Positions 16,742 to 33,365 of a DNA stretch of 33,365 nucleotides are shown here, in pieces. Origin of the DNA: Candidatus Bipolaricaulota bacterium. GTDB taxonomy: Bacteria > Bipolaricaulota > Bipolaricaulia > UBA7950 > UBA9294. The notes beneath the pieces were generated by a model. The model was not told the DNA's origin. It made no database searches and was given only the letters and a program-made list of their open reading frames with translations. Location: positions 1 through 33,365 of the forward strand of contig JAYEFP010000105.1 of the NCBI GenBank assembly GCA_034715975.1, in the 5' to 3' direction. Position 1 is the stretch's first letter; each line of letters starts with the position of its first letter. The position numbers and the translations under genes are program-made.

Positions 16742-17113
16742 CTATTCTTGTGCGAGGCGAACCTCGCGTGTAGCGATGAGGTTCGCTTCTGTTCCTAGTA
16801 TATTCTCTGTCAGAACCTGTCCGATCTCCACCGGTGCGTTTACTGAGAGCGTGCGTATGTGGTTCATGATCTGGCCGATTAGCCGCTTGGGAACAGGCTG
16901 ATCGGTCTTTACGGAGACGAGTGGGCGATCTCCGCCAACCAATCTCACACTCGTAGGAAGGACGCGCATTGGATCGATCGCCTCTTGGCGAGCGTACGCT
17001 TCCCCGCGCGGGCAACGGTTCCCGCTGATGCTCGTCACCACACCGTCCACCATCTTCACCCTAATCTCGCAGCCGATCGGGCAGGAGACACAGATCAGCT
17101 TCTTCTCAGTCAC
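16742..17113 (-). CDS. DUF1667-domain protein (small Cys-rich third subunit of the GlpA-like dehydrogenase set)
   Basis: 'LICVSCPIGCEIRV....GNRCPRGEAYA' is the DUF1667 pattern. Its start overlaps the upstream stop by 4 nt. Confidence 0.75.
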   Translation of the reverse strand: MTEKKLICVSCPIGCEIRVKMVDGVVTSISGNRCPRGEAYARQEAIDPMRVLPTSVRLVGGDRPLVSVKTDQPVPKRLIGQIMNHIRTLSVNAPVEIGQVLTENILGTEANLIATREVRLAQE

Positions 17114-19775: not shown

Positions 19776-21259
19776 CTCTGCCAGTCCTTTGCTCGTTCGA
19801 CAGCGCGCGCCCATTGAGAGAGGAGGCGCTCGCGTTCGTCGTTGCCCATCTTTGGCGTGAATCGTGTCTCGGAATGAGGGAGATCAAGAATCTCATCGCA
19901 CCGCCTCCAGAACCCAACCGTCAGTCCCGCGGCAAACGCCGCGCCGCGAGCCGTCATCTCTAGCTCCTCGGGGCGGATGACGGGTATCCCGAGGATGTCT
20001 GCTTGAAACTGACAGAGAAAGGCGTTCCTTGCCGCTCCTCCGTCCACGTGCAGCTCTTCGAGCGGGAGACCGAGATCGTCCTCCGTCGCGCGCACGATGT
20101 CGTGAGTCTGATAAGCGATCGCTTCTAGAGTAGCACGCACAATGTGCTCCCGCCGGGTCCCGCGCGTGATCCCAACGATCGTCCCGCGTGCACGTGGGTC
20201 CCAGTACGGTGCGCCGAGCCCGGTGAGGGCGGGGACGAAGTATACGCCGTTGGTCGATCCTACACTACAAGCTAGCTCATCCGACTGCGCCGCATCGTCT
20301 ATGATCCGCAAGCCGTCGCGTAGCCACTGAATCGCCGCCCCAGCGACAAAGACCGACCCCTCTAACCCATAGTTGCTTTCCTCATCGCTGCTGTAAAAGA
20401 CAGTTGCCAGGAGGCGATGCGCGCTCTTGGCGGGGCTGCTCCCTGTATTGCTCAGAAGAAAAGCCCCCGTCCCCCAGGTGACCTTCGTTGAACCCTTAGC
20501 AAAACCGGCGTGGCCGAACAGGGCGGCCTGCTGGTCACCGAGCACTCCTGTGATCGGAACAGCACGTCCGATGATCTCTTCCTTGATGCGGGCAAATACT
20601 GATAAGCTCGGTCTCACCTGCGGCAGGCACTGCTTGGGGATGGAGAAGATTCCGGTCAATTCATCGTCCCAAGAAAGGGTTTGTATGTTGAACAGCAGGG
20701 TACGCGAGGCGTTGCTTGCATCGCTCATATGCTCCCCGGTTAGTTTCCACAGAAGCCATGTATCGGGGGTGCCGAACAGGATTTCGCCCCTCTTGGCGCG
20801 CTCACGTGCCCGCGGAACGTGCTCCAAGATCCAGGCCACTTTCGTCGCCGAAAAATACGGATCGAGGGCAAGCCCGGTCCGCGTGCGCACCTCGTCTTCT
20901 ACTCCTTCATCACGCAGGCACGTACAGATCTCTGCCGTACGGCGATCCTGCCAAACAATCGCCGGATATACTGACTCCCCTGTCGCGCGTTCCCACACGA
21001 TGGTTGTCTCACGCTGGTTGGTCAAGCCAAAGGAGACAATGTCGTCAGCCGAGAGGCTCCCTTTGGAAAGGGCTTCACGCATTACAGCCACAGCCACTTC
21101 GAAGATCTCGTCTGGGTCTTGTTCGACCCACCCCGGCTGCGGGTAGGACAGGGAAAGCTCGCGGTAGGAAGAGGAGAGAGGCACACCGGAGCGATCGAAG
21201 ATAACGCACCTCACCCCAGACGTCCCCAGATCGATCGCTCCAATGTACTGCTCTGCCAT
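19772..21259 (-). CDS. glpK: Glycerol kinase
   Basis: 'YIGAIDLGTSGVRCVIFD', 'NQRETTIVWE', 'FGTPDTWLLWKLTG', 'DQQAALFG', 'GTGAF', 'HVDGGA' are FGGY/GlpK motifs. Start placed at ATG 21259 (MAEQY...). Confidence 0.93.
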   Translation of the reverse strand: MAEQYIGAIDLGTSGVRCVIFDRSGVPLSSSYRELSLSYPQPGWVEQDPDEIFEVAVAVMREALSKGSLSADDIVSFGLTNQRETTIVWERATGESVYPAIVWQDRRTAEICTCLRDEGVEDEVRTRTGLALDPYFSATKVAWILEHVPRARERAKRGEILFGTPDTWLLWKLTGEHMSDASNASRTLLFNIQTLSWDDELTGIFSIPKQCLPQVRPSLSVFARIKEEIIGRAVPITGVLGDQQAALFGHAGFAKGSTKVTWGTGAFLLSNTGSSPAKSAHRLLATVFYSSDEESNYGLEGSVFVAGAAIQWLRDGLRIIDDAAQSDELACSVGSTNGVYFVPALTGLGAPYWDPRARGTIVGITRGTRREHIVRATLEAIAYQTHDIVRATEDDLGLPLEELHVDGGAARNAFLCQFQADILGIPVIRPEELEMTARGAAFAAGLTVGFWRRCDEILDLPHSETRFTPKMGNDERERLLSQWARAVERAKDWQR

Positions 21260-21308
21260 CGTGCCCCCTATCCCTTTCTTGCGATTATTTGCCTTTATTT
21301 GCGAAACA

Positions 21309-21337
21309 ATAATACGCAAGGGATCTCTTCAAGTCAA
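21309..21337 (-). promoter_or_regulatory. Candidate sigma70-type promoter of glpK
   Basis: On the minus strand: TTGACT (21337-21332), 17-nt spacer, TATTAT (21314-21309), about 50 nt upstream of the glpK ATG. Embedded in an imperfect palindrome (see findings). Confidence 0.45.
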
Positions 21338-21357
21338 TAGGCGGCGCGCCCTCTCTC

Positions 21358-22464
21358 CTAGAACGGGAAGTTATAGCTGTCTAGCCCCAACTCCTTCTGC
21401 ATTATGAGAAGATTGTTCTGAAGGTTCGGATTGATCGGGACCCCTTGTTCACGGATCTCCTTCTCTTTCAACCACTCCTTCTCACCAGCGGTGTAGATCC
21501 GCTCAGACCCCGGTATCTTCGTTGAGTTGCGCAGAGAGCGCAGGATATCGCCCGTCGTTTTCTTGAACTGATCGAGCGGGACGAAGTGTTCGATGTCGAT
21601 CGCCATGAAGAAATGGCCCAGGCGATGCGGGCGCGGGCTCCCGTCGGGATTGAACCCACTGAGAGCACGGAGGAACATGCCTCCCTGCAGAGAGGCGGAC
21701 AGGATCTCCACCATCGTCGCCAGGTCATATCCCTTGTGTCCACCCATCGTCTCCCCGATGCCGCCAAGGGGGACGAAGGCGTTCTCCTTCTTCTTGAGGC
21801 CGGCGAGGATCGCCACCGTGTCAGTGGCTGTCTTCCCCTCGCGGTCGATCACCCAGCCGGCCGGGGTTGGCGTCTCCGCACGATCGAGGACCTCGATCTT
21901 TCCCCTCTGCGTAATCGAAGTCGCAGCGTCGTATAGGAATGGAAACTCCTCATCACTCGGGGCACCAAAGGCGATCGGGTTCGTTCCCAGCAGCGGATCC
22001 ACTCCGAATGTTGGGGCCATCGAAGGACGGGCGTTGGTGAACGCCATCCCTATCATCCCCTGCTCGACCGCCATCAGTGGGTAATAGCCGTCGATTCCAA
22101 AGTGTGTCGACTCGCGCACGGCAGCCGAGCCCATCCCGTACTTCCTCGCCTTGTCGATCACCATCTGCATCGCGCGCACGGAGATAACGTGTCCCATTCC
22201 ATTGTGGCCATCAATGAGGGCGGTCGTTTCCGTCTCCTTCACGACCTCAAACTCAGTGGTCGGGGAGAGGATCCCCTGCTTGACTCGATCGTAGTACATC
22301 TTTAGTCGTCCCACGCCGTGTGACTCAATTCCGCGTAAGTCCGAGGTGATCAGAACCTGAGCGCACGTCTTTGCCTCATCCTGAGGTACGCCCAATGCGG
22401 TGAAAACGTCAATCGCAAAGTTGTGAATGGTCTCTACTGGTACACGCACTGTGTCATTTGCCAT
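21358..22464 (-). CDS. Ldh_2 (malate/L-lactate dehydrogenase type 2) family oxidoreductase
   Basis: 'TSDLRGIESHGVGRL', 'HFG', 'GGHKGYDLA' fit the Ldh_2 family, which includes sulfolactate, ureidoglycolate and 2,3-diketogulonate dehydrogenases. ATG 22464 lies 6 nt after GGGAGG. Confidence 0.75.
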   Translation of the reverse strand: MANDTVRVPVETIHNFAIDVFTALGVPQDEAKTCAQVLITSDLRGIESHGVGRLKMYYDRVKQGILSPTTEFEVVKETETTALIDGHNGMGHVISVRAMQMVIDKARKYGMGSAAVRESTHFGIDGYYPLMAVEQGMIGMAFTNARPSMAPTFGVDPLLGTNPIAFGAPSDEEFPFLYDAATSITQRGKIEVLDRAETPTPAGWVIDREGKTATDTVAILAGLKKKENAFVPLGGIGETMGGHKGYDLATMVEILSASLQGGMFLRALSGFNPDGSPRPHRLGHFFMAIDIEHFVPLDQFKKTTGDILRSLRNSTKIPGSERIYTAGEKEWLKEKEIREQGVPINPNLQNNLLIMQKELGLDSYNFPF

Positions 22465-22494
22465 ATATGCCTCCCTTAGGTACAATATCTTAGT

Positions 22495-23280
22495 TTAGTT
22501 TAGTTTTGCATCGAGTTCAGCGAGGGCTGCAATACTCTCGATCACATAGTTCGGTTCTACCTTCGAAACTGCCAGATCGGCGCGCGATGTAACCCCGCTC
22601 AACGTGAGGATACCGGTCAACCCAGCGTCTCTTGCCATTCGCATATCGGTCTCCAAGCGGTCGCCGATCATCGCGCACTCCTCACGAGTTACTCCAAGCC
22701 GGTCGATGGCCACGTCCACGGTGTGTCGTGATGGCTTCCCTACCACCACCTCGACCTTCTTCCCGGTTGTCGCTTCAAGTGCAGCAATTACGCCGGCTGC
22801 ATCGGGTATCTCTCCCTGCTCTACCGGGCAGGTGCGATCCGGATTAGTCGCTACGAAGTGCGAACCACGACGGATCGCCTGGAAGCCGATGTTCAGCTTC
22901 TCGTAGGTGAATGTACGGTCGAAGGCGGCAATCACATACTCTATCTTCTCCGGGTCATCACACAGGGCCAACCCCGCGCGCTCTAACTCAGCGAGCAGCG
23001 GAGGCTCTCCAATCGCGTACACGTGCGCGCCAGGGGCTGACTCGGCCAAGTACCTAGCCAAGACAAAGGATGAGTTGATCACCTCGTCCTCGCTCGTCTC
23101 TATTCCAAGCCTCGTCAGCTTGTGGGCGTAATCGGCGCGCGAATAGAGCGGCTTGTTAGTCAGGAAGACTAACCTGCGTCCGCGCTTACGCAACGCCGCG
23201 ATCGTCTCTGTCGCCCCGGTGATCAGCCGTTCGCCAAGGTACACGGTACCGTCAAGGTCAAGCAGATATCCATTTATCAT
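22495..23280 (-). CDS. HAD-superfamily subfamily IIA (NagD-like) phosphatase, copy 1
   Basis: Motif I 'LLDLDGTV', 'LTNK', 'GKP', 'IGDRLETD'. Start placed at ATG 23280 (MINGYLLDLDG), 2 nt after the upstream stop. Confidence 0.8.
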   Translation of the reverse strand: MINGYLLDLDGTVYLGERLITGATETIAALRKRGRRLVFLTNKPLYSRADYAHKLTRLGIETSEDEVINSSFVLARYLAESAPGAHVYAIGEPPLLAELERAGLALCDDPEKIEYVIAAFDRTFTYEKLNIGFQAIRRGSHFVATNPDRTCPVEQGEIPDAAGVIAALEATTGKKVEVVVGKPSRHTVDVAIDRLGVTREECAMIGDRLETDMRMARDAGLTGILTLSGVTSRADLAVSKVEPNYVIESIAALAELDAKLN

Positions 23281-23282
23281 AG

Positions 23283-24131
23283 CTATTTCTGTGCTTGCAT
23301 GGCGATCCCTTTTGTAAAGCTTTTCCTGAACAGTATCAGGATAAGGAGAGGCGGGAGCATAGCGATGATCGCGCCGGCCATGATGACGTTCCACTCAGGG
23401 GCGATCTGCTCGCTCGCAAGGAGCATCTTAACGCCGATCTGAACCACGCGCATTTCACCCGTAGTGGTGACGATCAACGGCCACAGGTACTGGCTCCACA
23501 TGAAGATGAACTCGATGACGAACAGGGCGGCGATGTTCGTTTTGGAGATCGGGACCAGAATCTGCAGGAAGTAGCGCATTGGGCTTGCCCCATCAACTCG
23601 GGCTGCATCCGGTAGATCCCTTGGCACCGTCATGAAGAACTGACGGAAGAGGAGGATGCCCGTCGTGCTGGCGAAGAAAGGGATGGTCAGGGCGTAGTAC
23701 GAGTTGATCCAATCGAATGTCGCCATCAACTGGAAGGTCGGAACGATGCGCACCGGGAGCGGGAGCATCTGGGTTATCATGGTCATGGGGAAGAGCAACG
23801 ATCGTCCGCGAAACTTGAAGTGCGTGTAGGCAAAAGCTGCCATCAACGCGAGGATGATCTTTGCTATTGCGACCACGATAGAGATGAACGAGGTGTTAAG
23901 CATGAGACGACCCATGTTGATCCGGTTCCAAGCGACGGCGGCGTTGGCGAAGAAGTGGGTGCTAGGAATGAGTCGCGGTGGATACCCGTAGGACTGCTGA
24001 AAGTTCAGGGTGCTAGTGATGAGGGCAAAGATGACAGGAAACGTAATAACGATGACAAGCAGGATTAAGAGACCATGAATGAGGAACTTGTATCGGGTTT
24101 TTCTCGACAAACGAATCACCTCAGCGTGCAT
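23283..24131 (-). CDS. ABC carbohydrate/glycerophosphoryl-type permease, UgpE-like, locus 1
   Basis: EAA-loop 'DAARVDGASPMRYFLQILVP'. Start ATG 24131 gives the same 11-nt overlap with the upstream permease gene as in locus 2. An alternative GTG is at 24119. Confidence 0.8.
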   Translation of the reverse strand: MHAEVIRLSRKTRYKFLIHGLLILLVIVITFPVIFALITSTLNFQQSYGYPPRLIPSTHFFANAAVAWNRINMGRLMLNTSFISIVVAIAKIILALMAAFAYTHFKFRGRSLLFPMTMITQMLPLPVRIVPTFQLMATFDWINSYYALTIPFFASTTGILLFRQFFMTVPRDLPDAARVDGASPMRYFLQILVPISKTNIAALFVIEFIFMWSQYLWPLIVTTTGEMRVVQIGVKMLLASEQIAPEWNVIMAGAIIAMLPPLLILILFRKSFTKGIAMQAQK

Positions 24132-25014
24132 AGATGGCCTTTCGCGTTGCAAATCGCAATTGAATGATTGCAGCGATGGAGATAACAACAAAGATGACAA
24201 GCGATTGCGCGGACGCAGATCCTGTCTTCAGGTGGATGAATCCAGTTCGATATAGGTTGTACACAAGGATATTCGTTGCATTCCCCGGTCCGCCGCGGGT
24301 CATGATATCGATCAGCCCGAAGACCTGGAAGAACGAGTAGAGCATGTTAACAAACAGCAAGAAAGTAGTGGTCGGAGAGATCATGGGGAACGTAATCCGC
24401 CAGAAGGTCTTCCACGGTCCCGCTCCATCCACGCGCGCTGCTTCCATGAGTTCGCCAGGTACGTTCTGCAGCCCGGCCAAGAGGAATATGATGTTGTAAC
24501 CGAGCATCTTCCACGTAGCGGCAGCAGCGACAATGAACAGAGCGATCTGACCGCTGGTCATCCAGTTCATCAGTGGGCCGCCGGTGATCTTAGAGATGAT
24601 GTAGGGGACGATCCCAGTGGCGGGGGCAAACATCAATGCCCAGATCACTCCGGCGATCGCTGGGGAAAGGGCGTAGGTCCAGATTAGGGCGACCTGATAG
24701 AAACCCAGCCCTCTTATCTTCTGGTTCAGGAGTTGAGCGATGGCGAGCGACACGGAGAGACCGATCACGATGACGAACCCTGAGAAGGCGAGCGTGGTCA
24801 GTACACTGCTCCTATAGTCCGGCGAGGAGAACAAGCGAAGATAATTCCGAAAGCCGACGAAGATCGTCTTCGTGCCAAACGGGCTTGAGACGTAGAAGGA
24901 CGCTCGTATGCTCTGAGCGAAAGGGACGACCAGGAAGAGCACGATCACGAGGATCGAGGGGGCAATGAGCAGGTAAGGCAACAATCTATGCTTTGGAAAT
25001 CTATCCTCTTCCAC
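24121..25014 (-). CDS. ABC carbohydrate/glycerophosphoryl-type permease, UgpA-like, locus 1
   Basis: 'GYNIIFLLAGLQNVPGELMEAARVDGAGPWKTFWRITFP' is the EAA loop. Start proposed at GTG 25014, 7 nt after AAGGAG; the longest ORF begins with TTG at 25044. Confidence 0.8.
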   Translation of the reverse strand: MEEDRFPKHRLLPYLLIAPSILVIVLFLVVPFAQSIRASFYVSSPFGTKTIFVGFRNYLRLFSSPDYRSSVLTTLAFSGFVIVIGLSVSLAIAQLLNQKIRGLGFYQVALIWTYALSPAIAGVIWALMFAPATGIVPYIISKITGGPLMNWMTSGQIALFIVAAAATWKMLGYNIIFLLAGLQNVPGELMEAARVDGAGPWKTFWRITFPMISPTTTFLLFVNMLYSFFQVFGLIDIMTRGGPGNATNILVYNLYRTGFIHLKTGSASAQSLVIFVVISIAAIIQLRFATRKAIYAR

Positions 25015-25047
25015 CGTCCCTCTCCTTAGTTTATCAGGAAACAAAGA

Positions 25048-25076
25048 GGTGGGGCAGGCTTATGCCGTGCCCCACC
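25048..25076 (-). terminator. GC-rich hairpin (attenuator/partial terminator or mRNA stabiliser) between SBP and permease genes, locus 1
   Basis: ggtggggca (25048-25056) pairs with tgccccacc (25068-25076). The stem is extended by ggc/gcc around a ttat loop. On the minus-strand transcript it is followed by TCTTTGTTT. Confidence 0.45.
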
Positions 25077-25086
25077 GTATATGCTC

Positions 25087-26391
25087 TTATTCGCCGAAGA
25101 GCTCGTAGTAGTCGGTGAGTAACTGGTTCATTTTCGCAGCTGCCTCATCGAGTGCTTCGCGTGGAGTGAGCTGGTGTGCTATCGCCTTCTCCACCGCAGC
25201 TCTGAAGTGCTCCCGCATCTCGACAAACGGGCCAAGTCGTACCCCGCTTGCTGCTGCAGTGTCCCTCCGTCCGGATAGGATCTGCAGGAAGGCTGTCAGG
25301 TAGGCCTGATCGGCCGAGAACCAACCCTCGTCTAAGAGCGACTTGAGCGCGGCGCCACTCACCGGGAAGTAACCTGTCCCCTTGTGCCACTGAATGGCGA
25401 TATCCTTTTTCCCGAGGTACTTCAGAAACTCCCAAACCCCGTGGAGCTCCTCGTCACTCTGCCCCTTAGTGACCCATAGGCTTCCGCCGCCGATGACCGA
25501 GTTTCCTACGGGGTATCCTTCGAAGCGGGGGAGGAAGCTTGTTCCTACCTCGAACTCCGAAGCCTTGATGATCCCAGCCAGCGATGAGGTCGACTGAATA
25601 AGCATCGCGATCTGTCCGGCCTTGAATGCGGAGTTTGCCGAGTACTCCGCCCCTCCGTATATGTAGATCCCTTTATCGTGCAGCCTTATCCAGGTCTCAA
25701 AGACCATGTGCCCAAATGCGTCATTGTAGACAACCTCGGTCGCCAAACCGGCTCGACCGTTGTCGTTGTTCGCATAGAGGTGGTTGTGGTAGGTGAGCGT
25801 CTGCTCGAAGATCCAACTCGGCCAACCCGTGGAATAGGCGTGCTCGAGTACACCGCTATCCAGGATCTGTTGCCCGCACTCTTCCATCTCTTTCCATGTT
25901 GTCGGTGGCTTGTTCGGATCGAGTCCCGCCGCCTTGAATAGGTCCTTGTTGTAGTAGAGCATCGCCGTGGACGAGTTGAACGGCATCGACCACAGGTCGC
26001 CATCGACGGAGTAGTAGTGTGTGATGGGGATCACGTACTGTGCCCAATCCCACGTCTCCCCTAGCATCCCAGGGATCTGATAGACAGGGGTGATGGCACC
26101 GCTATCTATCATCGTCTGCGTGCCCACCTCGTACACTTGAACCAGGTTTGGCGCGCTCCCCACAGGGTAGGAGGCGACGAACTTGGTCAGCGTCTCTGCG
26201 TAACTCCCGGTGAACAAGGGCACGATCTCGATATCGGGATGACTGGCGTTGAAGCTGTCGACGATCGCCTCAACGACCCCCAGGCGTGACCCGCTCATCG
26301 CGTGCCACCAATTGATCTGCGTCTTCTCCGCAAACGCGAACGAAGACAGGGCAAGTACTGCTAACAGCGCAATCACTAAAACACGTTTCAT
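25087..26391 (-). CDS. Extracellular solute-binding protein, family 1 (UgpB-like), locus 1
   Basis: Signal peptide 'MKRVLVIALLAVLALSSFAFA' with no lipobox Cys, typical 434-aa length, and a position upstream of two permease genes. AAGGAGG precedes the ATG. Confidence 0.8.
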   Translation of the reverse strand: MKRVLVIALLAVLALSSFAFAEKTQINWWHAMSGSRLGVVEAIVDSFNASHPDIEIVPLFTGSYAETLTKFVASYPVGSAPNLVQVYEVGTQTMIDSGAITPVYQIPGMLGETWDWAQYVIPITHYYSVDGDLWSMPFNSSTAMLYYNKDLFKAAGLDPNKPPTTWKEMEECGQQILDSGVLEHAYSTGWPSWIFEQTLTYHNHLYANNDNGRAGLATEVVYNDAFGHMVFETWIRLHDKGIYIYGGAEYSANSAFKAGQIAMLIQSTSSLAGIIKASEFEVGTSFLPRFEGYPVGNSVIGGGSLWVTKGQSDEELHGVWEFLKYLGKKDIAIQWHKGTGYFPVSGAALKSLLDEGWFSADQAYLTAFLQILSGRRDTAAASGVRLGPFVEMREHFRAAVEKAIAHQLTPREALDEAAAKMNQLLTDYYELFGE

Positions 26392-26525
26392 TTCTTACCT
26401 CCTTTTGATCCTTGAAGCACCTATACAAGCTATATTTCACCACTCTCCAGCTCTTGTATCACCTCCTTCCGAGACTGACAGCTGCCAGGCCTTCTTTCGA
26501 TTTGTTGCACTAACTTGCGAATGCA

Positions 26526-26554
26526 ATTATAGCTAACGCCAGTCACCTCAACAA
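26526..26554 (-). promoter_or_regulatory. Candidate sigma70-type promoter of importer locus 1
   Basis: On the minus strand: TTGTTG (26554-26549), 17-nt spacer, TATAAT (26531-26526). Implies a leader of about 130 nt before the ATG at 26391. Confidence 0.4.
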
Positions 26555-26607
26555 AAACCTACAACTATCCACGAAAAATGTCAACCGCAAGCCATGTGTA
26601 CAGCACA

Positions 26608-27561
26608 TTATTGTGAGTCAAGGACGGTTGCGGCAATATCGACAAAATCGGTGAACACGCCATCGACATTGTAGTGGTAGTAGAACCGATCGAGCTCATC
26701 GCTCAGGTTGGCGTACTGTGATGGGAGGGAATCTTTACGGAAGGTATATGGGTGCACTACCAGATCTCGCTCGTGTGCCCAGGCGACAAATTGTGGGTTC
26801 TTCTCGATGATCTTCTTGGAAGGACCAATCCCATTGGCGTATGAGGCAATAGCATCCAGTCCCTCCTCTGTCCACATGCTCGCGTAGGCCCAACTAGCGC
26901 TCACCAATTGAATGAGTGGGATCTTTGTAGCCAACTCTCGCAACTTCTTCAACGAATCGGGCTCGAAGCACTGGACGTACACCTTTGCATCTGCTGCCAT
27001 GTAGCTATAGCGATCCAGCATGTTGATCAACGCCTGTTCCATGGGGAGTCCTTGTTGATCATGCCAGCTAGGACGCTTGAGTTCTGGATATATGCCCACA
27101 TCGCGTCCTGTGCTCTTGTTTAAGCTTTGGACAAGCTCGATCATCTCAGCGAAGGTGGGAACATCGAATCTCGACTTACCGACTGGGAAGCGATCTGGGA
27201 AATAGGGAGTGCCGTTTGACTTGCAGCGCTCGTGCACGGATAGGGTTTTGATCTCAGCCAGGGTGAAGTCGGCAGCGTACCAGTGGCCGTCGGAGCGGTG
27301 ACGATTCGGAAAGACTGTTTCCACATCGGTCGTCGGATTCAGGTAGATGTCATGCATGCAGATGAACTGGGCGTCCTTTGTCAGCACGAGATCGGGCTCT
27401 ACGTAGTCCGCCTCCAACGCATATGCGTAGGCGTAGCCCTCCAGCGTGTGCTCCGGCAGGTACCCCGCCGCCCCACGGTGTCCGATGACAATCTTTCCTT
27501 GAGCAACAGCGATTAGCCCAATGGCAAGAACGATTCCCAAAGCAATCAATATCCGCTTCAA
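26608..27561 (-). CDS. glpQ: Secreted/anchored glycerophosphodiester phosphodiesterase
   Basis: N-terminal hydrophobic signal 'MKRILIALGIVLAIGLIAVA', then 'IGHRGAAGYLPEHTLEGY' and 'EPDL' GDPD catalytic motifs. Confidence 0.85.
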   Translation of the reverse strand: MKRILIALGIVLAIGLIAVAQGKIVIGHRGAAGYLPEHTLEGYAYAYALEADYVEPDLVLTKDAQFICMHDIYLNPTTDVETVFPNRHRSDGHWYAADFTLAEIKTLSVHERCKSNGTPYFPDRFPVGKSRFDVPTFAEMIELVQSLNKSTGRDVGIYPELKRPSWHDQQGLPMEQALINMLDRYSYMAADAKVYVQCFEPDSLKKLRELATKIPLIQLVSASWAYASMWTEEGLDAIASYANGIGPSKKIIEKNPQFVAWAHERDLVVHPYTFRKDSLPSQYANLSDELDRFYYHYNVDGVFTDFVDIAATVLDSQ

Positions 27562-27584
27562 TGTAGCCTCCTAGTGTCTTGTAC

Positions 27585-28556
27585 CTAGCCTTCTTCTTTC
27601 GCCACAGGCTGATCAACTAGCGGGTAGCGATCCACGTTATTGAATGGGATTTCTTTTGGACTATCGCGGATTCCATCTGCTCCAGGGTGGTCTTGGTCTT
27701 GCCCTGAATAGCGGTCTACAATAGGATCTCCAGACCAGAAATTGCCTCCCGCGGGATAGCCACCGTCCCAGTAGTTGCTGATTTCATCGCATGTTGCCGA
27801 TCGGTTGTTATCGAGAAATGCATTATGGAAGATGCTGTTTCCCTCGGACGTATGGACGATAGCCAGCCCCAACTCGCAGTCTGTGATCGTATTTTCGGTG
27901 ATTGAGCAGTCGAAGCAGTCCCACAGGAACATTCCGTGATTCATATTCGTGATATCGTTGCTGCGCAGATAGTCGCGATGGCAGCTATCCAAGTACATCC
28001 CATTGCGGCTGTCCGCTATGCTGTTGTTTGCTAACAGAGCATCGTGACAACGCCAGAGAAATACCCCGTGTTCTAGTGTCCCATGAATCTTGTTACCGAC
28101 AATACTGATGGTGTTGGATTCGGTGCCTTCAATCCCACGAATGCAATTGATGCAGGCATTTTCGTTGACCATGGTCGTCGGGGATTGATAGACAAAGATC
28201 CCTTTAGCAAGATCGGTGAGCTTGCAGTTGTTTACCTCTACGTGTGACGCTTGGCTAACAATAATGCCAATTACCGTACGACCCTTTCCAACTATGGTAC
28301 AGTTACGGATGATCAAGTAGGCTAATGTGTTCTTTACCTCGATTCCAGCACCTGCGCTCACTTCGATAGACCAATCGTCGATTATGTATGGATCGTCGAC
28401 TGAGCCACTTCCGGATGTGACCCCGTTCCCTGTGTGTAAATCGGCATCAGAACGAATGGAGATCTGATCATGCAGGGTGTCGCCGTGCGCTACCGGGCAA
28501 GCAAACACGATCGCGACGAGGCAAACAAGAAGCAAGGAGAAGGCATGCTTTCTCAT
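27585..28556 (-). CDS. Secreted right-handed parallel beta-helix (PbH1/NosD-like) repeat protein
   Basis: Signal peptide 'MRKHAFSLLLVCLVAIVFACPVAHG'. 'GSGSVDDPYII' lead-in, then repeated segments of about 22 aa (..N..I.....GI.......N.I..N.I) and a 'DRYPL' tail. ATG 28556 forms an ATGA overlap with the upstream stop. Confidence 0.7.
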   Translation of the reverse strand: MRKHAFSLLLVCLVAIVFACPVAHGDTLHDQISIRSDADLHTGNGVTSGSGSVDDPYIIDDWSIEVSAGAGIEVKNTLAYLIIRNCTIVGKGRTVIGIIVSQASHVEVNNCKLTDLAKGIFVYQSPTTMVNENACINCIRGIEGTESNTISIVGNKIHGTLEHGVFLWRCHDALLANNSIADSRNGMYLDSCHRDYLRSNDITNMNHGMFLWDCFDCSITENTITDCELGLAIVHTSEGNSIFHNAFLDNNRSATCDEISNYWDGGYPAGGNFWSGDPIVDRYSGQDQDHPGADGIRDSPKEIPFNNVDRYPLVDQPVAKEEG

Positions 28557-29773
28557 AGCCCTTTCTGTGCAAGAAGTTTGTCCATCAAGTTGATCAGTTC
28601 CTCCTCGCGTCCATGCGGAACGAGTGCAGCTGCTGCATAGCCGTGACAGGCATCGATGGTTCCATCGACCTGTAATGCAGCTTCGGGCAGGAGCCAATCG
28701 AGACCGGGCATGTCACCATCGATGATCCTCTGACCAAGCGACGTGGGAACCCGCATCGATACCTTGGCTAAGTTCCACTCAAATGTACCAAGCCCGGGAA
28801 TCTCAGTTGGCATGTCCTGGAACCCGGCAATGTACTTAGTAGGATCCATGAATTCCTCATCGCGGATGTCCATGCAGAACTCACCGATGATCTTCACCCC
28901 CATCGGGGAGAAACCGTCTCCGACGATGAACCATTGATTATGGTCCGTCACGTGGAGGTTCCCTTCCTTCAATCGGGCGAGCTGTTGGGAGAACCGCTCT
29001 TCCTTGAGGGTGCTCAGTTCTGCTAGCTTCTTGTCGTACTCCGGGCTGGGCCCTTCGAAGCACGCACGAATCCCTACCTCCGGACCTTCCACCGTGTATC
29101 CGGCTGCGCCGAGGACCGTAAGCGATTTGGAGAAGGGCGTAAGCGGGATCTCTCTACCGAAGCGGGTGAGGACGTACTCCTCTCTGTCACTTCCTTTGGC
29201 GATGATCTTGATGTCTCCCATCTTGACGGCGTCCATCAGAGCCTCACGGTTGTAGGCGATGAGCTTGCCGCTGCGATCGTGCGAATCACCGATCGCTCCG
29301 ATTACTCCCAGATAGCGCAAATCGACGTTCTTCTCATCGAGTACGGTAGCGAAAATTGTCGCTGCCGTAGCTGCGGAGATCTCATCCTCTCCTGACAGGC
29401 CGAAGCGCTCAGTGGATAGATTGAGAACCTTGTCCGATGTCGATTCCTCTGCTGGATGATGGTCGAGAATGAGAGTAAACGACCGATCGCGATTGAGACC
29501 GCAGATGACTGGGGCTGCTCTTCCCGCCAGGTCCGTGTACACCACCGGATGCCCGGCGGCGCGATCATGGATGCGTTCCACAATCGGTGGGTGAATCCGT
29601 TCTAGCGCGATCCTCTCCACCTTGAAGCCGTCGCGGCTGAGAGCGGTCTCCAGAATCGCTCCTGCGGTGAGTCCATCGGCGTCGTTGTGGTGCACCAGCG
29701 TAATCTCGCGTCCGGCGGTGCGCAGCTTGCTTATCCCATCCTTCAACGCCTTGATATACGCTTCTCTACCCAT
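28553..29773 (-). CDS. DHH/DHHA1-family phosphoesterase (RecJ/NrnA-like fold)
   Basis: Motif I 'HHNDADGL', motif III 'ILDHHPA', motif IV 'GAIGDS', and a degenerate DHHA1 element 'DACHGYAAAA'. Its ATG lies 1 nt after the upstream HAD stop. Confidence 0.7.
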   Translation of the reverse strand: MGREAYIKALKDGISKLRTAGREITLVHHNDADGLTAGAILETALSRDGFKVERIALERIHPPIVERIHDRAAGHPVVYTDLAGRAAPVICGLNRDRSFTLILDHHPAEESTSDKVLNLSTERFGLSGEDEISAATAATIFATVLDEKNVDLRYLGVIGAIGDSHDRSGKLIAYNREALMDAVKMGDIKIIAKGSDREEYVLTRFGREIPLTPFSKSLTVLGAAGYTVEGPEVGIRACFEGPSPEYDKKLAELSTLKEERFSQQLARLKEGNLHVTDHNQWFIVGDGFSPMGVKIIGEFCMDIRDEEFMDPTKYIAGFQDMPTEIPGLGTFEWNLAKVSMRVPTSLGQRIIDGDMPGLDWLLPEAALQVDGTIDACHGYAAAALVPHGREEELINLMDKLLAQKGL

Positions 29774-29774
29774 C

Positions 29775-30635
29775 TCAATGCTCCTTTGCTTCCAAAATAT
29801 CGATCACTGAATCGAAGGCAAAGCTCGGAGATACACCAAGAGATTGCAGCTTTTCCTCGGTCATAGCTCCCGAGCGCACGAAGATCGTCGTCATCCCCAT
29901 CCCTTGCCCGGCAAGCATGTCGGTATCCATGTCACCGACAATAGCGCAGTCCCTTCCCGCGAGTCCGAGTCGATTGAGGGCAATCTTGACGATGTACGGC
30001 GAGGGCTTGCCAATGATCGCGTCTGGTTCGCGGTCGACCATGTACGAGAGCGCACCGATCATCGCTCCTGTCCCTGGGATAACCCCGTCTTTGGCCGGAA
30101 AGATGCGGTCGGGATTTGTAGCAACGAACTTAGCGTTAGCATGGTAGAGGGCGCGCAGCGCACCGGTGATCCTCTCGCTATTCTCCTGGGTGAGTTGGCC
30201 CTTTCCGTTGAACGCTGAGCCGACGACCGCATACTCAGCGACGAGCGGATCATCCACGAGATCCAATCCGGCAAGCTCCAGCTCCCGCCGGAGTCCAGGC
30301 GCTCCGACCATGTACACCTTTGCCCGCGGTTTTTCGTTCGCTACGTAGCGAGCGGTGGCGTAGGTAGAGAGGACAAGATCATCAGCGGTCACCGGGATAC
30401 CAATGCGGGTGAATTTAGCGATGTACTCCTCGCGCGACTTGGTCGAGTTGTTGGAGATGAAGATCACCTTTTTCCCTCCGCGGCGCAGCCGTTCGATCGC
30501 CTCTGGCGCGCGAGGGATGATCTCCTCTCCGCGCACGAGGACGCCATCGACATCGAATACAAAGCCCTTGCACCTATTCAACGGATGCTCGGCCGCGAAC
30601 ATGTCCATCTTTGCATCCGGATACCAATCAGTCAT
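29775..30635 (-). CDS. HAD-superfamily subfamily IIA (NagD-like) phosphatase, copy 2
   Basis: Motif I 'FVFDVDGVL', 'ISNNS', 'GKP', 'VGDMDTDM'. GGAGGG lies 5 nt upstream of the ATG at 30635. Confidence 0.8.
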   Translation of the reverse strand: MTDWYPDAKMDMFAAEHPLNRCKGFVFDVDGVLVRGEEIIPRAPEAIERLRRGGKKVIFISNNSTKSREEYIAKFTRIGIPVTADDLVLSTYATARYVANEKPRAKVYMVGAPGLRRELELAGLDLVDDPLVAEYAVVGSAFNGKGQLTQENSERITGALRALYHANAKFVATNPDRIFPAKDGVIPGTGAMIGALSYMVDREPDAIIGKPSPYIVKIALNRLGLAGRDCAIVGDMDTDMLAGQGMGMTTIFVRSGAMTEEKLQSLGVSPSFAFDSVIDILEAKEH

Positions 30636-30658
30636 GCGAACCCTCCAATTCTGTCTTA

Positions 30659-31399
30659 TCAGTTGTCCTTTCCCTCGGCTTGCCGTAATTGGATGAGTGC
30701 CTCGGGTCGGTCCGTTATTATTCCGTCCACTCCCATGCGAGAGAATTCTTGCATCGATTCGTCGTTATTGACCACCCATGGGTAGATAGCAATACCACTT
30801 GAGTGTGCATCCTTGACAAGCGTTGGCGTGGTCTGTGCCCAATGCGGAAGCACAGCCACCGGATTCAATGCCTGTATCTCCTGTCGCAAACTCAGCCACT
30901 CTCCCGCATAAAGCATCCCGATCCGCGTATCACGCGATGTCTCGTGTAAGTTCAAGAGGCTACGGTGATCGAATGAGATCACGGTGGTCCATGATATCGC
31001 GTCACACTCGTGCAGGATCTGAGAGAGACGCTCTTCCACCCAGGTATAGCGATCCAATTCGTGCCGTGTACGCTTGACCTCAAGAAAGAGCTCAGCTTTG
31101 CCGGCGAGTAAATGAAGCGCTTCTTCGAGGAGGAGGATCCGTTCGCCGGCGTATTTTGTCGACGTGCGGCTGCCAATCTTTAGTGTCCGTAGCTGATCGC
31201 TTGTAAGGTGCATTGTCCAGCCAGCATGGCCGGTAAGGCGAGCGATATCAGCATCGTGGAACAACACAAACTTGCGGTCCGCCGTTGGCCAGACATCGAT
31301 TTCCACCGCATCCAATCCGAGTGCAAGAGCATGTTCCAGGCCTGTTCGTGAGTTTTCCGGGGCACTCTGCCCCCCACCCTTGTGTCCAACAATCTTCAC
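30659..31399 (-). CDS. ugpQ: Cytoplasmic glycerophosphodiester phosphodiesterase (UgpQ-like)
   Basis: 'IVGHKGGGQSAPENS', 'EIDVW' and 'HD' GDPD motifs, with no signal peptide. GTG 31399 overlaps the upstream stop (GTGA), with GGAGGAG upstream. Confidence 0.8.
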   Translation of the reverse strand: MKIVGHKGGGQSAPENSRTGLEHALALGLDAVEIDVWPTADRKFVLFHDADIARLTGHAGWTMHLTSDQLRTLKIGSRTSTKYAGERILLLEEALHLLAGKAELFLEVKRTRHELDRYTWVEERLSQILHECDAISWTTVISFDHRSLLNLHETSRDTRIGMLYAGEWLSLRQEIQALNPVAVLPHWAQTTPTLVKDAHSSGIAIYPWVVNNDESMQEFSRMGVDGIITDRPEALIQLRQAEGKDN

Positions 31400-32259
31400 T
31401 TCTCCTCCGTAAGCGCAAATCCGCGCATGAACTGTTCCTGCAACAGGATAAACATGATGAGCGGCGGCAGCATAGTGATGATTACGCCAGCCATGGATAT
31501 GCCCCAGTGGACCATCCCTTCTGGTCCGGCGCTGGTCAGCCTCTTCACGCCCATCTGGATCATCTGGTTGTTGTTGGAACTAATGATAATCAGCGGCCAT
31601 AGGTATTGGTTCCACAAGTAGACGAATTCAATTACCGCCATTGCTCCAACGGTGTTCAGCGACATGGGTAGTAAGATCTGCCACAGAAAACGCATTGGGC
31701 CAACTCCATCCACGCGAGCTGCGTCGACAAGTGATGTGGGGATGGACATGAAATGCTGACGGAAGAGGAACGTCCCTGTTGCAGATGCTAAGAACGGGAC
31801 GGTCAGTGCCCAGAAGCTGTTTCCCCAACCGAGACTGCTCACGAATTTGAACAGCGGAACTATGCGTACGGGAACGGGCATCATCAGTGTCACGAGGATA
31901 AAGACGAATATCAGCCCTTTGAAGCGGAAGTCAAAGTAGACTAATGCCAGGGCTGCAAGGAGAGATAGGATAGTCTTTCCCACCATCACACTGATTGCCA
32001 CAGCGAACGTATTACCCATCAGCCTTCCCAGATTATAGCGCTCCCAGGCGACGGTGTAGTTCTCGATCGCCGATCTGCCAATACCAAACTGCGGTGGGTA
32101 CGTGCTAATTTGAGCAGTACTCTGTGTGCTCTTGATGAGCGCGAAAATAATCGGGGAAGCGACTATTAGAGCAACCAAAATGAGGACAAGATGAGTAGAG
32201 AAGGTGGAGAGTCTCGGCCTCCAGTAGTACCAATCACGCCTATTCTTCTTACCCGCCAT
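31396..32259 (-). CDS. ABC permease, UgpE-like, locus 2
   Basis: 'DAARVDGVGPMRFLWQILLP' EAA loop, collinear with the locus-1 paralog. ATG 32259 lies after GGGAGGAAGG and overlaps the upstream gene by 11 nt. Confidence 0.8.
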   Translation of the reverse strand: MAGKKNRRDWYYWRPRLSTFSTHLVLILVALIVASPIIFALIKSTQSTAQISTYPPQFGIGRSAIENYTVAWERYNLGRLMGNTFAVAISVMVGKTILSLLAALALVYFDFRFKGLIFVFILVTLMMPVPVRIVPLFKFVSSLGWGNSFWALTVPFLASATGTFLFRQHFMSIPTSLVDAARVDGVGPMRFLWQILLPMSLNTVGAMAVIEFVYLWNQYLWPLIIISSNNNQMIQMGVKRLTSAGPEGMVHWGISMAGVIITMLPPLIMFILLQEQFMRGFALTEEK

Positions 32260-33133
32260 AGTGTACCTTCCTCCCCGTAGTCCTAAACTGCAGCAATGTA
32301 AATCCAACAACCATGACAAACAGAATCACCGACTGCGCCGATGCCATTCCCCACTTATTGTGTTGGAAAGCATCACGGTACAGGTTGTAGATGAGAATGT
32401 TCGTCGCGTTTGCCGGCCCCCCCTTAGTTAGGACATCGATAAGACCGAATACGTTGAAGAAAGCGTAGATCATGTTCATGATCAACAGGAAGAACGCAGT
32501 CGGAGACAACAAAGGAAGCGTGATCCGCCAAAAACAGCGCCATGATCCGGCACCATCGATTCGCGCCGCCTCAATCACCTGCCCGGGAACGTTTTGCAGT
32601 CCAGCCAGGAAGAAAACTATGTTGTATCCCAGGTTCTTCCACACCGCGGCAGTGATCACCAGGAAGATAGCAAGACTCTTGCTCGTAACCCAATCGGGCG
32701 ATATTCCAATGGTTCGCTCCAAGACGAAGTTTACCACCCCAGCTGTCGGATTGAACAAGAATAACCAGATCGTTCCTGCCACCGCCGGGGATAGCGCGTA
32801 CGGCCAGATGAGAGCGGTTCGGTATATGCGAGCTCCACGCACCTTTCGGTTAGCGACCAGCGCGATCGCTAAGGATGAGGAGAGGCCTAGAAGAACAATC
32901 CCCGCAGCGAACACAATGCTGATCCACAAGCTGTGGAGGTAGGCTGACGAGGTGAACATGCGCACATAGTTCTGAGTTCCCACATAAAGGGTGCGAAGCC
33001 CCATGAATGCGGCCCGAAGGAGGCTCCAGCTAAAGCTTTGCGCCAGCGGATAGTAGAGGAACATTCCGCAAACGAGCAGGGTGGGAAGCAGGATGAGCAG
33101 CGGGAGCTTCCTGCTTGGGAACTTACTCTCCAT
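32249..33133 (-). CDS. ABC permease, UgpA-like, locus 2
   Basis: 'GYNIVFFLAGLQNVPGQVIEAARIDGAGSWRCFWRITLP' EAA loop. GAGGAG lies upstream of the ATG at 33133. Confidence 0.85.
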   Translation of the reverse strand: MESKFPSRKLPLLILLPTLLVCGMFLYYPLAQSFSWSLLRAAFMGLRTLYVGTQNYVRMFTSSAYLHSLWISIVFAAGIVLLGLSSSLAIALVANRKVRGARIYRTALIWPYALSPAVAGTIWLFLFNPTAGVVNFVLERTIGISPDWVTSKSLAIFLVITAAVWKNLGYNIVFFLAGLQNVPGQVIEAARIDGAGSWRCFWRITLPLLSPTAFFLLIMNMIYAFFNVFGLIDVLTKGGPANATNILIYNLYRDAFQHNKWGMASAQSVILFVMVVGFTLLQFRTTGRKVHYGG

Positions 33134-33169
33134 GATCTTTTTCTCCTCTTCTTCTGCTAGGCTAAAATA

Positions 33170-33198
33170 ACGGGGAGCCCAATAAAAAGGCTCCCCGT
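33170..33198 (-). terminator. Hairpin (attenuator/partial terminator or mRNA stabiliser) between SBP and permease genes, locus 2
   Basis: acggggagcc (33170-33179) pairs with ggctccccgt (33189-33198) around a 9-nt loop. On the minus-strand transcript it is followed by TATTTTAG. Confidence 0.5.
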
Positions 33199-33212
33199 CT
33201 CTGTCGGCAAGA

Positions 33213-33365
33213 CTAGCCGCCCATTAGTTCCTTGTAGTCCACAAGAGCCTGATCGATCAGTCCCTTAGCCTTGGAAAGAGCATCAGCTACGCTAGCTCCA
33301 CCGTAGATTTCTTCTGCGGCATCCTCGATGTAAGTTCGAATGTCCGGGAAGACACCAGACAGAGC
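33213..33365 (-). CDS. C-terminal 50 codons of a second family-1 solute-binding protein, locus 2 (gene continues beyond the right edge)
   Basis: Hand translation of the minus strand gives ...ALSGVFPDIRTYIEDAAEEIYGGASVADALSKAKGLIDQALVDYKELMGG*, with stop TAG at 33215-33213. It is collinear with the C-terminus of the locus-1 SBP (...ALDEAAAKMNQLLTDYYELFGE*). Absent from the ORF track only because it is short and edge-truncated. Confidence 0.7.
   Translation of the reverse strand, partial: ALSGVFPDIRTYIEDAAEEIYGGASVADALSKAKGLIDQALVDYKELMGG

Follow-up and report, generated by a model that had tools for sequence, protein, structure and literature searches.

Organization of the locus

The locus described here lies on contig JAYEFP010000105.1 of the Candidatus Bipolaricaulota bacterium assembly GCA_034715975.1, of which positions 1 to 33,365 (33,365 nucleotides, referred to as the window) were analyzed. 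Between the window end and about 16.7 kb, the minus strand carries a single co-oriented run of glycerol-phosphate genes (Table 1), and the three genes of main concern, at 27,585 to 30,635, code for a HAD-IIA phosphatase (HAD1), a DHH/DHHA1-type phosphoesterase, and a secreted parallel beta-helix protein. They belong to a first unit of the order SBP–ugpA–ugpE–GDPD–HAD-IIA–DHH–(beta-helix)–glpQ, all on the minus strand, where SBP denotes a substrate-binding protein and GDPD a glycerophosphodiester phosphodiesterase. The best explanation of this operon is a system by which glycerophosphodiesters and glycerol phosphate are taken up and catabolized, the three genes being in its distal half. An earlier interpretation made from the DNA letters (the sequence-only reading) treated the three genes as one unit of the operon; they are indeed real, co-oriented, and linked, but only the DHH and HAD-IIA genes form a conserved core, usually accompanied by GDPD or glycerol genes, and the beta-helix gene is an accessory.

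The HAD-IIA stop codon (TGA, 29777-29775) is separated by a single nucleotide from the DHH start at ATG 29773 (TGA-g-ATG), the DHH stop (TGA, 28555-28553) overlaps the beta-helix start (ATG, 28556-28554) as ATGA, and the glpQ start at TTG 27561, preceded by AGGAGG, comes 23 nt after the beta-helix stop (TAG, 27587-27585); all these junctions had been given exactly by the sequence-only reading. In the 5' part of the operon ugpA and ugpE share 11 nt, ugpE and the GDPD gene abut, and the spacing between the GDPD and HAD-IIA genes is 23 nt. The likely start of ugpE is ATG 32259, the mechanically delimited open reading frame (ORF) beginning at TTG 32319; ugpE orthologues code for 286-287 amino acids and have an identical 11-nt overlap with ugpA. 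The tight packing of the genes is not due to chance, because it is kept in relatives.

Table 1. Features of the glycerol-phosphate gene run and the adjoining ATPase gene
Feature	Position	Strand	Basis
3' end of first SBP gene, UgpB-like, cut by window end	33213..33365	-	stop TAG 33215-33213
Intercistronic 12-bp GC-rich hairpin with U-rich tract, SBP/ugpA gap	33169..33199	-	-28.8 kcal/mol
UgpA-like ATP-binding cassette (ABC) permease	32249..33133	-	PF00528; NF007852 263 bits, below equivalog cut-off 335
UgpE-like ABC permease	31396..32259	-	PF00528; NF008210 221 bits vs cut-off 297
Cytoplasmic GDPD, UgpQ-like, no signal peptide	30659..31399	-	PF03009 146 bits
HAD-IIA phosphatase HAD1	29775..30635	-	TIGR01460 142.4 bits vs cut-off 100.15
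DHH/DHHA1-type phosphoesterase, 'DACH' subfamily, 406 aa, cytoplasmic	28553..29773	-	motifs and predicted fold (AlphaFold2, AF2)
Secreted right-handed parallel beta-helix protein, 323 aa	27585..28556	-	PF13229, PF05048, TIGR03804
Secreted GlpQ-type GDPD, TTG start with AGGAGG	26608..27561	-	NF008354 322 bits > 254; PF03009 177 bits
Second tandem module, 216-nt spacer before it	16742..26391	-	ugpBAE2-HAD2-Ldh_2-GlpK-GlpA-like set
UgpB2	25087..26391	-	Ugp family model
UgpA2	24121..25044	-	Ugp family model
UgpE2	23283..24200	-	Ugp family model
HAD-IIA no. 2 (HAD2)	22495..23394	-	36% identical to HAD1
Ldh_2-family dehydrogenase	21358..22485	-	
Glycerol kinase GlpK	19772..21319	-	TIGR01311 671 bits > 590
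GlpA-like / Pyr_redox_2 / DUF1667 glycerol-3-phosphate dehydrogenase set	16742..19814	-	
UgpC/MalK-type ABC ATPase	15633..16712	+	PF00005, OB_MalK, TOBE_2

The DHH protein

Close homologues of the DHH protein, about 405 amino acids long, number in the hundreds, with 50-60% identity among those of Bipolaricaulota, Chloroflexota, and Thermococcus. Its metal-site motifs, HHNDADG (residues 28-34), D81, DHH (104-106), and GAIGDSH (159-165), are invariant across 59 homologues, and so are K337, S339, and R341 (KVSMR, 337-341) and the sequence I-D-A-C-H (373-377). The latter stands in place of the GGGH element of DHHA1, of which only the His is kept, so the sequence-only reading of retained DADG, DHH, and GAIGD motifs next to a degenerate DHHA1 element was correct. 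Judged by these motifs the protein is apparently catalytically intact. Its match to PF01368 (DHH) has 24.7 bits, below the gathering cut-off of 28.1; many homologues carry a precomputed PF01368 match, indicating a borderline score and not an absent domain.

The AF2 model of the protein (pLDDT 94.6, pTM 0.92) comprises a DHH domain, a short CID-like insert, a linker helix, and a DHHA1 domain. With Foldseek it is matched over its full length by RecJ of P. furiosus (5x4h; query and target TM-scores, TMq 0.83 and TMt 0.72; 19% identity), followed by RecJ-Cdc45 of M. thermautotrophicus (7bih), RecJ2 of M. jannaschii (7ykv), and Cdc45 structures, while pAp phosphatase, bacterial RecJ, and NrnA are poorer fold matches. 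By sequence only the N-terminal approximately 190 residues are recognizable, with an archaeal RecJ match at 1e-30 and scores of 154.5 bits for NF053576 RecJ_archaeal (cut-off 360) and 80.1 bits for GAN NF053575 (cut-off 850). For the C-terminal half, a sequence search against the PDB gave no match, and the fold search alone tied it to DHHA1. As the model indicates, the protein belongs to the archaeal RecJ/Cdc45 fold group and is not a generic DHH enzyme. The label 'single-stranded-DNA-specific exonuclease RecJ' given by JGI to such genes is probably wrong.

The full-length fold, motifs I-IV, and K-x-S-x-R are common to the DHH protein and the archaeal RecJ/GAN/Cdc45 proteins (5x4h, GAN of T. 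kodakarensis 5ghr, 7ykv, 7bih). Nevertheless, identity to them is only 16-20%, the protein is shorter (406 vs. 430-470 amino acids), its CID-like insert is reduced, NGGGH is exchanged for IDACH, the genetic context is glycerol-phosphate metabolism and not replication or repair, and the host is a bacterium; to our knowledge, bacteria lack the GINS/MCM partners. NrnA-type nanoRNases and pAp phosphatases (8a8k, 4ls9, 5o7f) share the DHH-DHHA1 arrangement, act on small phosphoesters and not on long DNA, and offer a plausible analogy for a small-molecule or short-oligomer substrate. However, they match the model more weakly (TMq 0.37-0.57), keep GGGH, are devoid of the CID insert and the long linker, and are not known to be associated with genes for HAD-IIA or glycerol metabolism.

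In MjRecJ2, K369, S371, and R373 (K-x-S-R-R) hold the scissile phosphate, while N398 and G399-G401 of the NGGGH loop touch the base and the ribose (PMC11193018). When the motifs are equated by their order and the model, and not by a superposed complex, the simplest reading is that the phosphoester chemistry has been retained and nucleoside recognition replaced. We therefore propose, on the grounds of motifs and model, that the subfamily marked by this loop, called DACH, may no longer act on nucleic acids.

The same features have to be weighed against a nucleic-acid or nucleotide role, as a RecJ-like exonuclease, a nanoRNase, or a pAp or cyclic-dinucleotide phosphodiesterase. Together with a NagD-like HAD-IIA nucleotidase such an enzyme would form a phosphate-scavenging pair converting oligonucleotides to nucleoside monophosphates and further to nucleosides and phosphate, its operon being merely shared with GDPD and GlpQ. 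All structural neighbours of the DHH protein are nucleases or pAp phosphatases, its metal site and phosphate anchor are intact, HAD-IIA includes nucleotidases, e.g. NagD (2c4n and 1pw5 are among the HAD1 matches), and the ugp operons of E. coli belong to the Pho regulon. We nonetheless consider this role unlikely: no DACH member retains the GGGH loop that contacts the nucleoside, and the neighbouring genes are carbon-catabolic (GlpK, GlpA-like, GpsA, the GlpD fusion described below) with a GlpR/DeoR-type regulator, and not pst/pho genes, none of which was found within the window.

The DACH subfamily and its fusions

A profile search of 1.8 billion representatives yielded about 172 family clusters at E < 1e-30, and a few long proteins. 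The sequence of the DHHA1 loop separates two subfamilies. DACH members come from Bipolaricaulota, Chloroflexota, KSB3, Atribacterota, Thermococcus, and Desulfurococcales and include both HAD fusions, while ADA[TS]H members come from Archaeoglobi and others. HAD-IIA is adjacent to the DHH gene in 36 of the 52 DACH loci and in 4 of the 31 ADA[TS]H loci; a glycerol-phosphate gene lies within 5 kb in 41 and 11 of them, respectively.

One of the fusion proteins, P0205 (835 amino acids), consists of HAD-IIA and DHH domains. The other, P0204 (1810 amino acids), from a metagenome-assembled genome (MAG) of Magnetococcales, comprises HAD-like, HAD-IIA, and DHH domains followed by a GlpD-type FAD glycerol-3-phosphate (G3P) dehydrogenase, and is encoded by one uninterrupted, NCBI-annotated ORF of 5.4 kb (L088:2691-8123). 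The DACH motif is kept in both, and the two fusions thus independently tie the DHH domain to the HAD-IIA phosphatase and to the oxidation of G3P. The P0204 gene stands alone; beside it are encoded an HD-domain protein and a fragment of a histidine kinase. In P0194 the same extra HAD-like domain is found at the C-terminus of its DHH domain.

The nucleotide role could also draw on a related archaeal protein, P0195/P0334 of a Nitrososphaeria archaeon (1187 amino acids), in which a family-B DNA polymerase (PolB) is fused to a RecJ-like DHH domain. However, with ADG-H in the DHHA1 loop and without motif IV, it falls outside the DACH group, in a different subfamily. To judge from these motifs its DHH domain is probably a Cdc45-like, inactive module attached to PolB, and the fusion was set aside as evidence for a DNA role of the window protein.

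The HAD-IIA partner

The translation of HAD1 contains all the expected motifs, FDVDG, SNNS, GKPS, and GDMDTD. The nearest solved structures are those of the uncharacterised 'p-nitrophenyl phosphatase Pho2' (3qgm/4jdp, 230 bits), and the glycerol-3-phosphate phosphatases 7po7 and 4i9f are more distant. Both HAD1 and HAD2, the latter encoded in the second module, match the HAD-IIA phosphatases of G3P and phosphoglycolate (Rv1692 4i9f, PGP 7po7, TK1734 of T. kodakarensis) with the catalytic motifs intact, and these enzymes provide a precedent for the dephosphorylation of glycerol phosphate. Nevertheless, both proteins remain below the specific cut-offs (TK1734_fam 151-186 vs. 475; PGP_euk 166-178 vs. 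202), and neither pairing nor fusion with a DHH protein is known for those phosphatases. HAD1 and the DHH protein may interact physically.

Conservation of the linkage across genomes

The linkage was followed in a scan of one genome per GTDB species, which gave 80 loci (numbered with L) screened with the window proteins; ORFs were six-frame stop-to-stop segments scored with the same proteins. In all 21 Bipolaricaulota-type loci the DHH gene directly follows HAD-IIA and a GDPD gene lies within 5 kb, its place being constant in every Bipolaricaulota locus having enough upstream sequence; the slot between DHH and glpQ is occupied by a beta-helix gene in 15 of the 21. The closest relatives of the window locus carry the labels Bipolaricaulota/Acetothermia, and Bipolaricaulota-like loci are also filed as Thermotogae, Neomarinimicrobiota, or Caldisericota. 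Relatives whose DHH proteins are 78% and 69% identical to that of the window have the same gene order, beta-helix included, and the same 4-nt overlap of the DHH and beta-helix genes. The order in the complete chromosome of Bipolaricaulota sp. J31 is DeoR-SBP-perm-perm-GDPD-HAD-DHH-GlpQ-HAD-Ldh_2 (perm, permease). In one Bipolaricaulota MAG (GCA_001684015.1, L090:4788-6004) the GDPD, DHH, HAD2, and Ldh_2 genes are split in fragments, for which poor assembly or frameshifts are more likely than decay or pseudogenisation.

Outside this phylum, KSB3-like loci have the orders GDPD-HAD-DHH-GDPD and ATPase-DHH-GDPD. In Chloroflexota the order is reversed, HAD-IIA coming after DHH, and UgpBAE, UgpC, or GlpK are sometimes near. 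Thermococcus sp. JdFR-02 has the order GDPD-GlpK-SBP-perm-perm-ATPase-HAD-DHH-GpsA, and the HAD-DHH pair is also present in Desulfurococcales, 'Benthortus', Pyrohabitans, and a Methanobacteriota MAG. The linkage, for which the sequence-only reading had left open that it was peculiar to this genome, is thus found as HAD-DHH-GDPD in 21/21 Bipolaricaulota-type loci and recurs in KSB3, Chloroflexota, and archaea. Of the genes concerned, DHH, HAD-IIA, and GDPD recur across phyla, and the beta-helix gene recurs in Bipolaricaulota only.

In Chloroflexota and Atribacterota a UgpC-like gene, convergently oriented, adjoins the DHH gene (L038, L040, L045, L048, L083, L086), and a protein of the alkaline phosphatase superfamily of about 270 amino acids is encoded nearby in 11 Chloroflexota loci. 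Each Archaeoglobi genome encodes one or two members of the sister subfamily, ADATH, with genes for aldehyde:ferredoxin oxidoreductase and a 4Fe-4S protein adjoining the DHH gene in about 16 loci (the Archaeoglobi-type loci cited are L056, L073, and others, and also L057, L067, L069, L076, L081, L082, and L084). These neighbours, together with an aminotransferase and BirA, seem to reflect synteny within the lineage and did not point to a function.

The distribution of the family among Archaeoglobi, Thermococcus, Desulfurococcales, and thermophilic Bipolaricaulota, where it is abundant, could also suit a metabolism of the phosphodiester solutes of thermophiles (diglycerol phosphate, glycerophosphoinositol, di-myo-inositol phosphate), with the DHH-HAD pair serving turnover in archaea and scavenging in Bipolaricaulota. 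Diglycerol phosphate is a glycerophosphodiester of Archaeoglobus, a gene for an NAD-dependent G3P dehydrogenase lies within 5 kb of DHH in 7 Archaeoglobi-type loci and immediately follows DHH in Thermococcus, and the nearest solved homologue of HAD1 is the archaeal-type Pho2. However, most Archaeoglobi loci are of the ADATH subfamily and have no glycerol genes near DHH, many DACH members come from mesophilic Chloroflexota and the Magnetococcales MAG, and no link to synthase genes for these solutes was found in the loci, which makes such a function very improbable.

The secreted beta-helix protein

The beta-helix protein scores 59 bits with TIGR03804 (cut-off 19.45; three repeats) and 70 bits with PF13229, and also matches PF05048. 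Its AF2 model (pLDDT 86) has regular three-strand coils at residues 57-256. The start at ATG 28556 is backed by 27 orthologues, whose N-termini align and share a hydrophobic, signal-like segment; a signal peptide and PbH1-like repeats had also been noticed in the sequence-only reading. A longer ORF starting with TTG at 28697 is unsupported by the orthologue N-termini, and a lipoprotein reading of the signal (VFAC) was rejected, the Cys not being conserved in orthologues. Conserved Cys and His occupy coil positions (FLWRCH, YLDSCH, FLWDCFDC, VHTSE, ATCDE); their number is unusual for a secreted protein and might reflect a metal site or a disulfide ladder.

The fold search returned only generic matches (tailspike depolymerases, NosD, alginate epimerases and lyases; E about 1e-5, TM at most 0.51), so a specific enzymatic assignment could not be based on it. 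Although NosD (7osf, 7o0y), an accessory of an ABC-type complex, is among the top matches and shares secretion and PbH1 repeats, the identification with NosD was rejected (TIGR04247 71.8 bits vs. a cut-off of 300; nos genes absent from both the window and related loci). Unlike NosD and the polysaccharide-active beta-helices, the window protein has no recognised catalytic residues, and its orthologues are found only in the Bipolaricaulota operon slot. The orthologue group comprises about 37 clusters, with a sharp score drop beyond them; wherever the context of a member is known, its gene lies in the interval from DHH to glpQ. A more distant beta-helix protein is encoded elsewhere.

The gene has the lowest G+C content of the operon (0.497, with 0.565 at third codon positions; window mean 0.555) and evolves fastest, with 60% identity where its neighbours have 78-94%. 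It is absent from three loci with a DHH protein 85-89% identical (L011, L012, L015), from J31, and from everything outside Bipolaricaulota. Because it is missing from close relatives and from J31 and evolves fast, the beta-helix protein is an optional, lineage-restricted extracellular accessory, plausibly a partner of the adjacent secreted GlpQ.

These observations bear on the model put forward in the sequence-only reading, the harvest of a phosphodiester-linked polymer outside the cell, e.g. poly(glycerol phosphate) teichoic acid or capsule, in which, as spelled out here, the beta-helix protein would be a depolymerase or binder and GlpQ an exo-enzyme, and imported oligomers would be trimmed by DHH as an exo-oligo(glycerol phosphate) phosphodiesterase. 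The genes for the secreted beta-helix protein and GlpQ are adjacent in 15/21 Bipolaricaulota loci and also in L090 and L091, the fold resembles, with low significance, that of polysaccharide depolymerases and lyases, NrnA and other DHH enzymes trim short oligomers joined by phosphodiester bonds, and poly(glycerol phosphate) may be regarded as chemically akin to an RNA backbone. However, the DHH-HAD pair occurs in Chloroflexota, KSB3, and archaea without the beta-helix and often without a secreted GlpQ, and its role therefore cannot depend on extracellular polymer harvest. The beta-helix gene is dispensed with even in the closely related loci named above and in the complete J31 genome, no lyase or hydrolase family catalytic signature was recognised in the protein by family scans or the fold search, and UgpB-like binding proteins are known for G3P, glycerol-1-phosphate (G1P), and small diesters, not for oligomers (PMC12718374; general knowledge). 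The model has no specific support from this analysis and appears rather improbable.

Transporters, GlpQ, and the second module

For each transporter component the top match is a Ugp model, all scores being under the equivalog cut-offs. With the UgpB model NF008211 (cut-off 411), UgpB2 scores 311 bits and the full-length orthologue of the first SBP in L005 (437 amino acids) 192.6 bits. No ABC ATPase is encoded on the minus strand between 16742 and 33365, and there is no UgpC inside the operon; the MalK/UgpC-type ATPase of the opposite strand, the sole candidate in the window, presumably serves both permease pairs. Besides the operon's lack of its own ATPase, the whole locus shows a tandem duplication, in which the second module is ugpBAE-HAD. 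The secreted GlpQ has a signal-peptide N-terminus visible in the sequence (MKRILIALGIVLAIGLIAVAQG) and passes the NCBIfam equivalog NF008354. A DeoR/GlpR-type regulator is encoded just upstream of the SBP gene in relatives.

The hairpin between the SBP gene and ugpA (z = -3.5; 0 of 200 shuffled sequences fold equally well) is of the type of intercistronic element that gives a binding protein in excess over the permease, and is possibly an attenuator or an mRNA stabiliser. Folding of the spacer that precedes ugpB2 gave nothing significant (z = -1.0), and in a promoter/terminator consensus scan of 21000-33365 sites were no more frequent than in shuffled sequence.

Each of the two tandem Ugp-like modules codes for an SBP, two permeases, and a HAD-IIA protein, the SBP types being distantly related, and the two transporters probably import different solutes. 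Relatives vary in this respect, some having one Ugp-like module and others both, and where the second module is present its gene order is the same. The Ldh_2 dehydrogenase comes after the second HAD-IIA here as well as in J31, L005, L012, L019, and others; its best NCBIfam match is L-sulfolactate dehydrogenase (256 bits vs. a cut-off of 500). This position hints that a 2-hydroxy-acid is also processed, perhaps derived from a phospho-hydroxy-acid freed by HAD2.

The UgpB-like SBP, UgpA/UgpE-like permeases, cytoplasmic GDPD, and secreted GlpQ are shared with the ugpBAECQ/GlpQ system of E. coli and with GlpQ of B. subtilis, which acts in teichoic-acid salvage; GlpK and G3P dehydrogenase, encoded downstream, complete the catabolic route. 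In contrast to E. coli ugp, the operon itself is devoid of an ATPase (UgpC-like, encoded elsewhere on the other strand), the transporter scores stay below the equivalog cut-offs, and a GlpR/DeoR-type regulator stands upstream in relatives instead of Pho control. Moreover, the window operon has extra HAD-IIA genes (two), the RecJ-fold DHH, the secreted beta-helix protein, and Ldh_2, and its transporter module is duplicated in tandem.

A proposed route of glycerol-phosphate ester catabolism

With a probability of roughly 55%, we propose that the DACH protein acts in the cytoplasm as a phosphoesterase on a small glycerol-phosphate ester and forms a two-enzyme module with the adjacent HAD-IIA phosphatase, in an otherwise conventional uptake and catabolism system. 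The analysis shows the order and conservation of the genes, the fold, the motifs, and the fusions; the substrate and the direction of the route are inferred as follows. Extracellular GlpQ, possibly aided by the beta-helix protein, would free glycerol phosphate or small diesters, their sources being phospholipid head groups or polymers with phosphodiester linkages, and the Ugp-like transporters would import the released compounds. GDPD would split ordinary sn-glycero-3-phospho-diesters, and the DHH protein an ester beyond the reach of GDPD, which might be an sn-1-type diester (of archaeal lipids or lipoteichoic acid), a short glycerol phosphate oligomer, cyclic glycerophosphate, or a bisphosphate. 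HAD-IIA would then take the phosphate off the non-G3P product to give glycerol, to be converted by GlpK and the GlpA-like dehydrogenase, encoded just downstream, to sn-G3P and dihydroxyacetone phosphate.

Several points weigh against this proposal. The closest characterised relatives of the DHH protein are all nucleic-acid exonucleases or pAp/nanoRNA phosphatases. With ordinary G3P as its substrate, a HAD phosphatase working ahead of GlpK would seem futile, and the HAD-GlpD fusion could fit other schemes equally well. The locus scan used peptide patterns from the DACH-type subfamily, which biases the sampling toward it; the loci are mostly on contigs of MAGs, several of them doubtfully labelled as to taxon, and because many loci are closely related, the counts exceed the true number of independent events. 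In 11 of the 52 DACH loci, some of them on short contigs, there is no glycerol-phosphate gene within 5 kb. Finally, the commonest upstream neighbour of DHH in Chloroflexota is a mevalonate-kinase-like GHMP kinase gene (TIGR00549 172.6 vs. a cut-off of 163), arranged as MVK-DHH-HAD-IIA in about 20 loci (L028-L049, L050, L052, L066; e.g. L045:9025-9996), where GDPD is not near DHH; this neighbour is unexplained by a glycerol role.

The objection of futility would be lifted if the substrate were one unusable by G3P dehydrogenase, such as the sn-1 enantiomer or the 2-phosphate, since its dephosphorylation would give achiral glycerol, from which GlpK would make sn-G3P. We know of no described intracellular enzyme that acts on glycerophosphodiesters of the sn-1 type, for instance those in lipoteichoic acid. 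Both G3P and G1P can be bound by UgpB-type proteins, what becomes of G1P after its import has not been described, and the recycling of archaeal G1P has been called unexplored (PMC12718374). In its boldest and rather doubtful form, the proposal would make DACH and HAD-IIA a two-step bacterial and archaeal pathway converting esters unusable by GDPD/GlpD-type enzymes to glycerol and, by GlpK, to sn-G3P, the candidate substrates being sn-G1P-type head groups (of archaeal lipids or lipoteichoic acid), cyclic glycerophosphate, and glycerol phosphate oligomers. If true, the pathway would be a stereochemical 'reset' explaining the recycling of G1P-based biomass, and a DNA-replication nuclease fold would have been recruited to the catabolism of lipid head groups.

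Full-text literature searches found no description of the DACH DHH family or of the operon composition, in agreement with the sequence-only reading, which knew of no such system. Ugp/GlpQ systems, HAD-IIA phosphatases, and DHH enzymes are known, but there appears to be no description of a DHH subfamily that has the RecJ/Cdc45 fold and is tied to both HAD-IIA and the catabolism of glycerol phosphate. A highly conserved, motif-intact member of the RecJ/Cdc45 fold in bacterial glycerophosphodiester operons, or fused to HAD and G3P dehydrogenase, is unexpected to a RecJ/Cdc45 specialist, and the finding points to a missing step in the breakdown of glycerol-phosphate esters. Were the DHH protein an ordinary nanoRNase or pAp phosphatase, the finding would shrink to an unusual operon arrangement.

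Other features of the window

Rfam and tRNA scans of the window gave no match. The other 15 kb of the window are housekeeping in character (lipoate synthesis, RuvB, RibF, TsaB, POR, NUDIX). Two further features of the plus strand are unconnected with the operon, a fragment of a PKD/cadherin-like surface protein gene at 1-717 and a short CDP-alcohol phosphatidyltransferase-like ORF at 6241-6762, located beside an EamA transporter gene.

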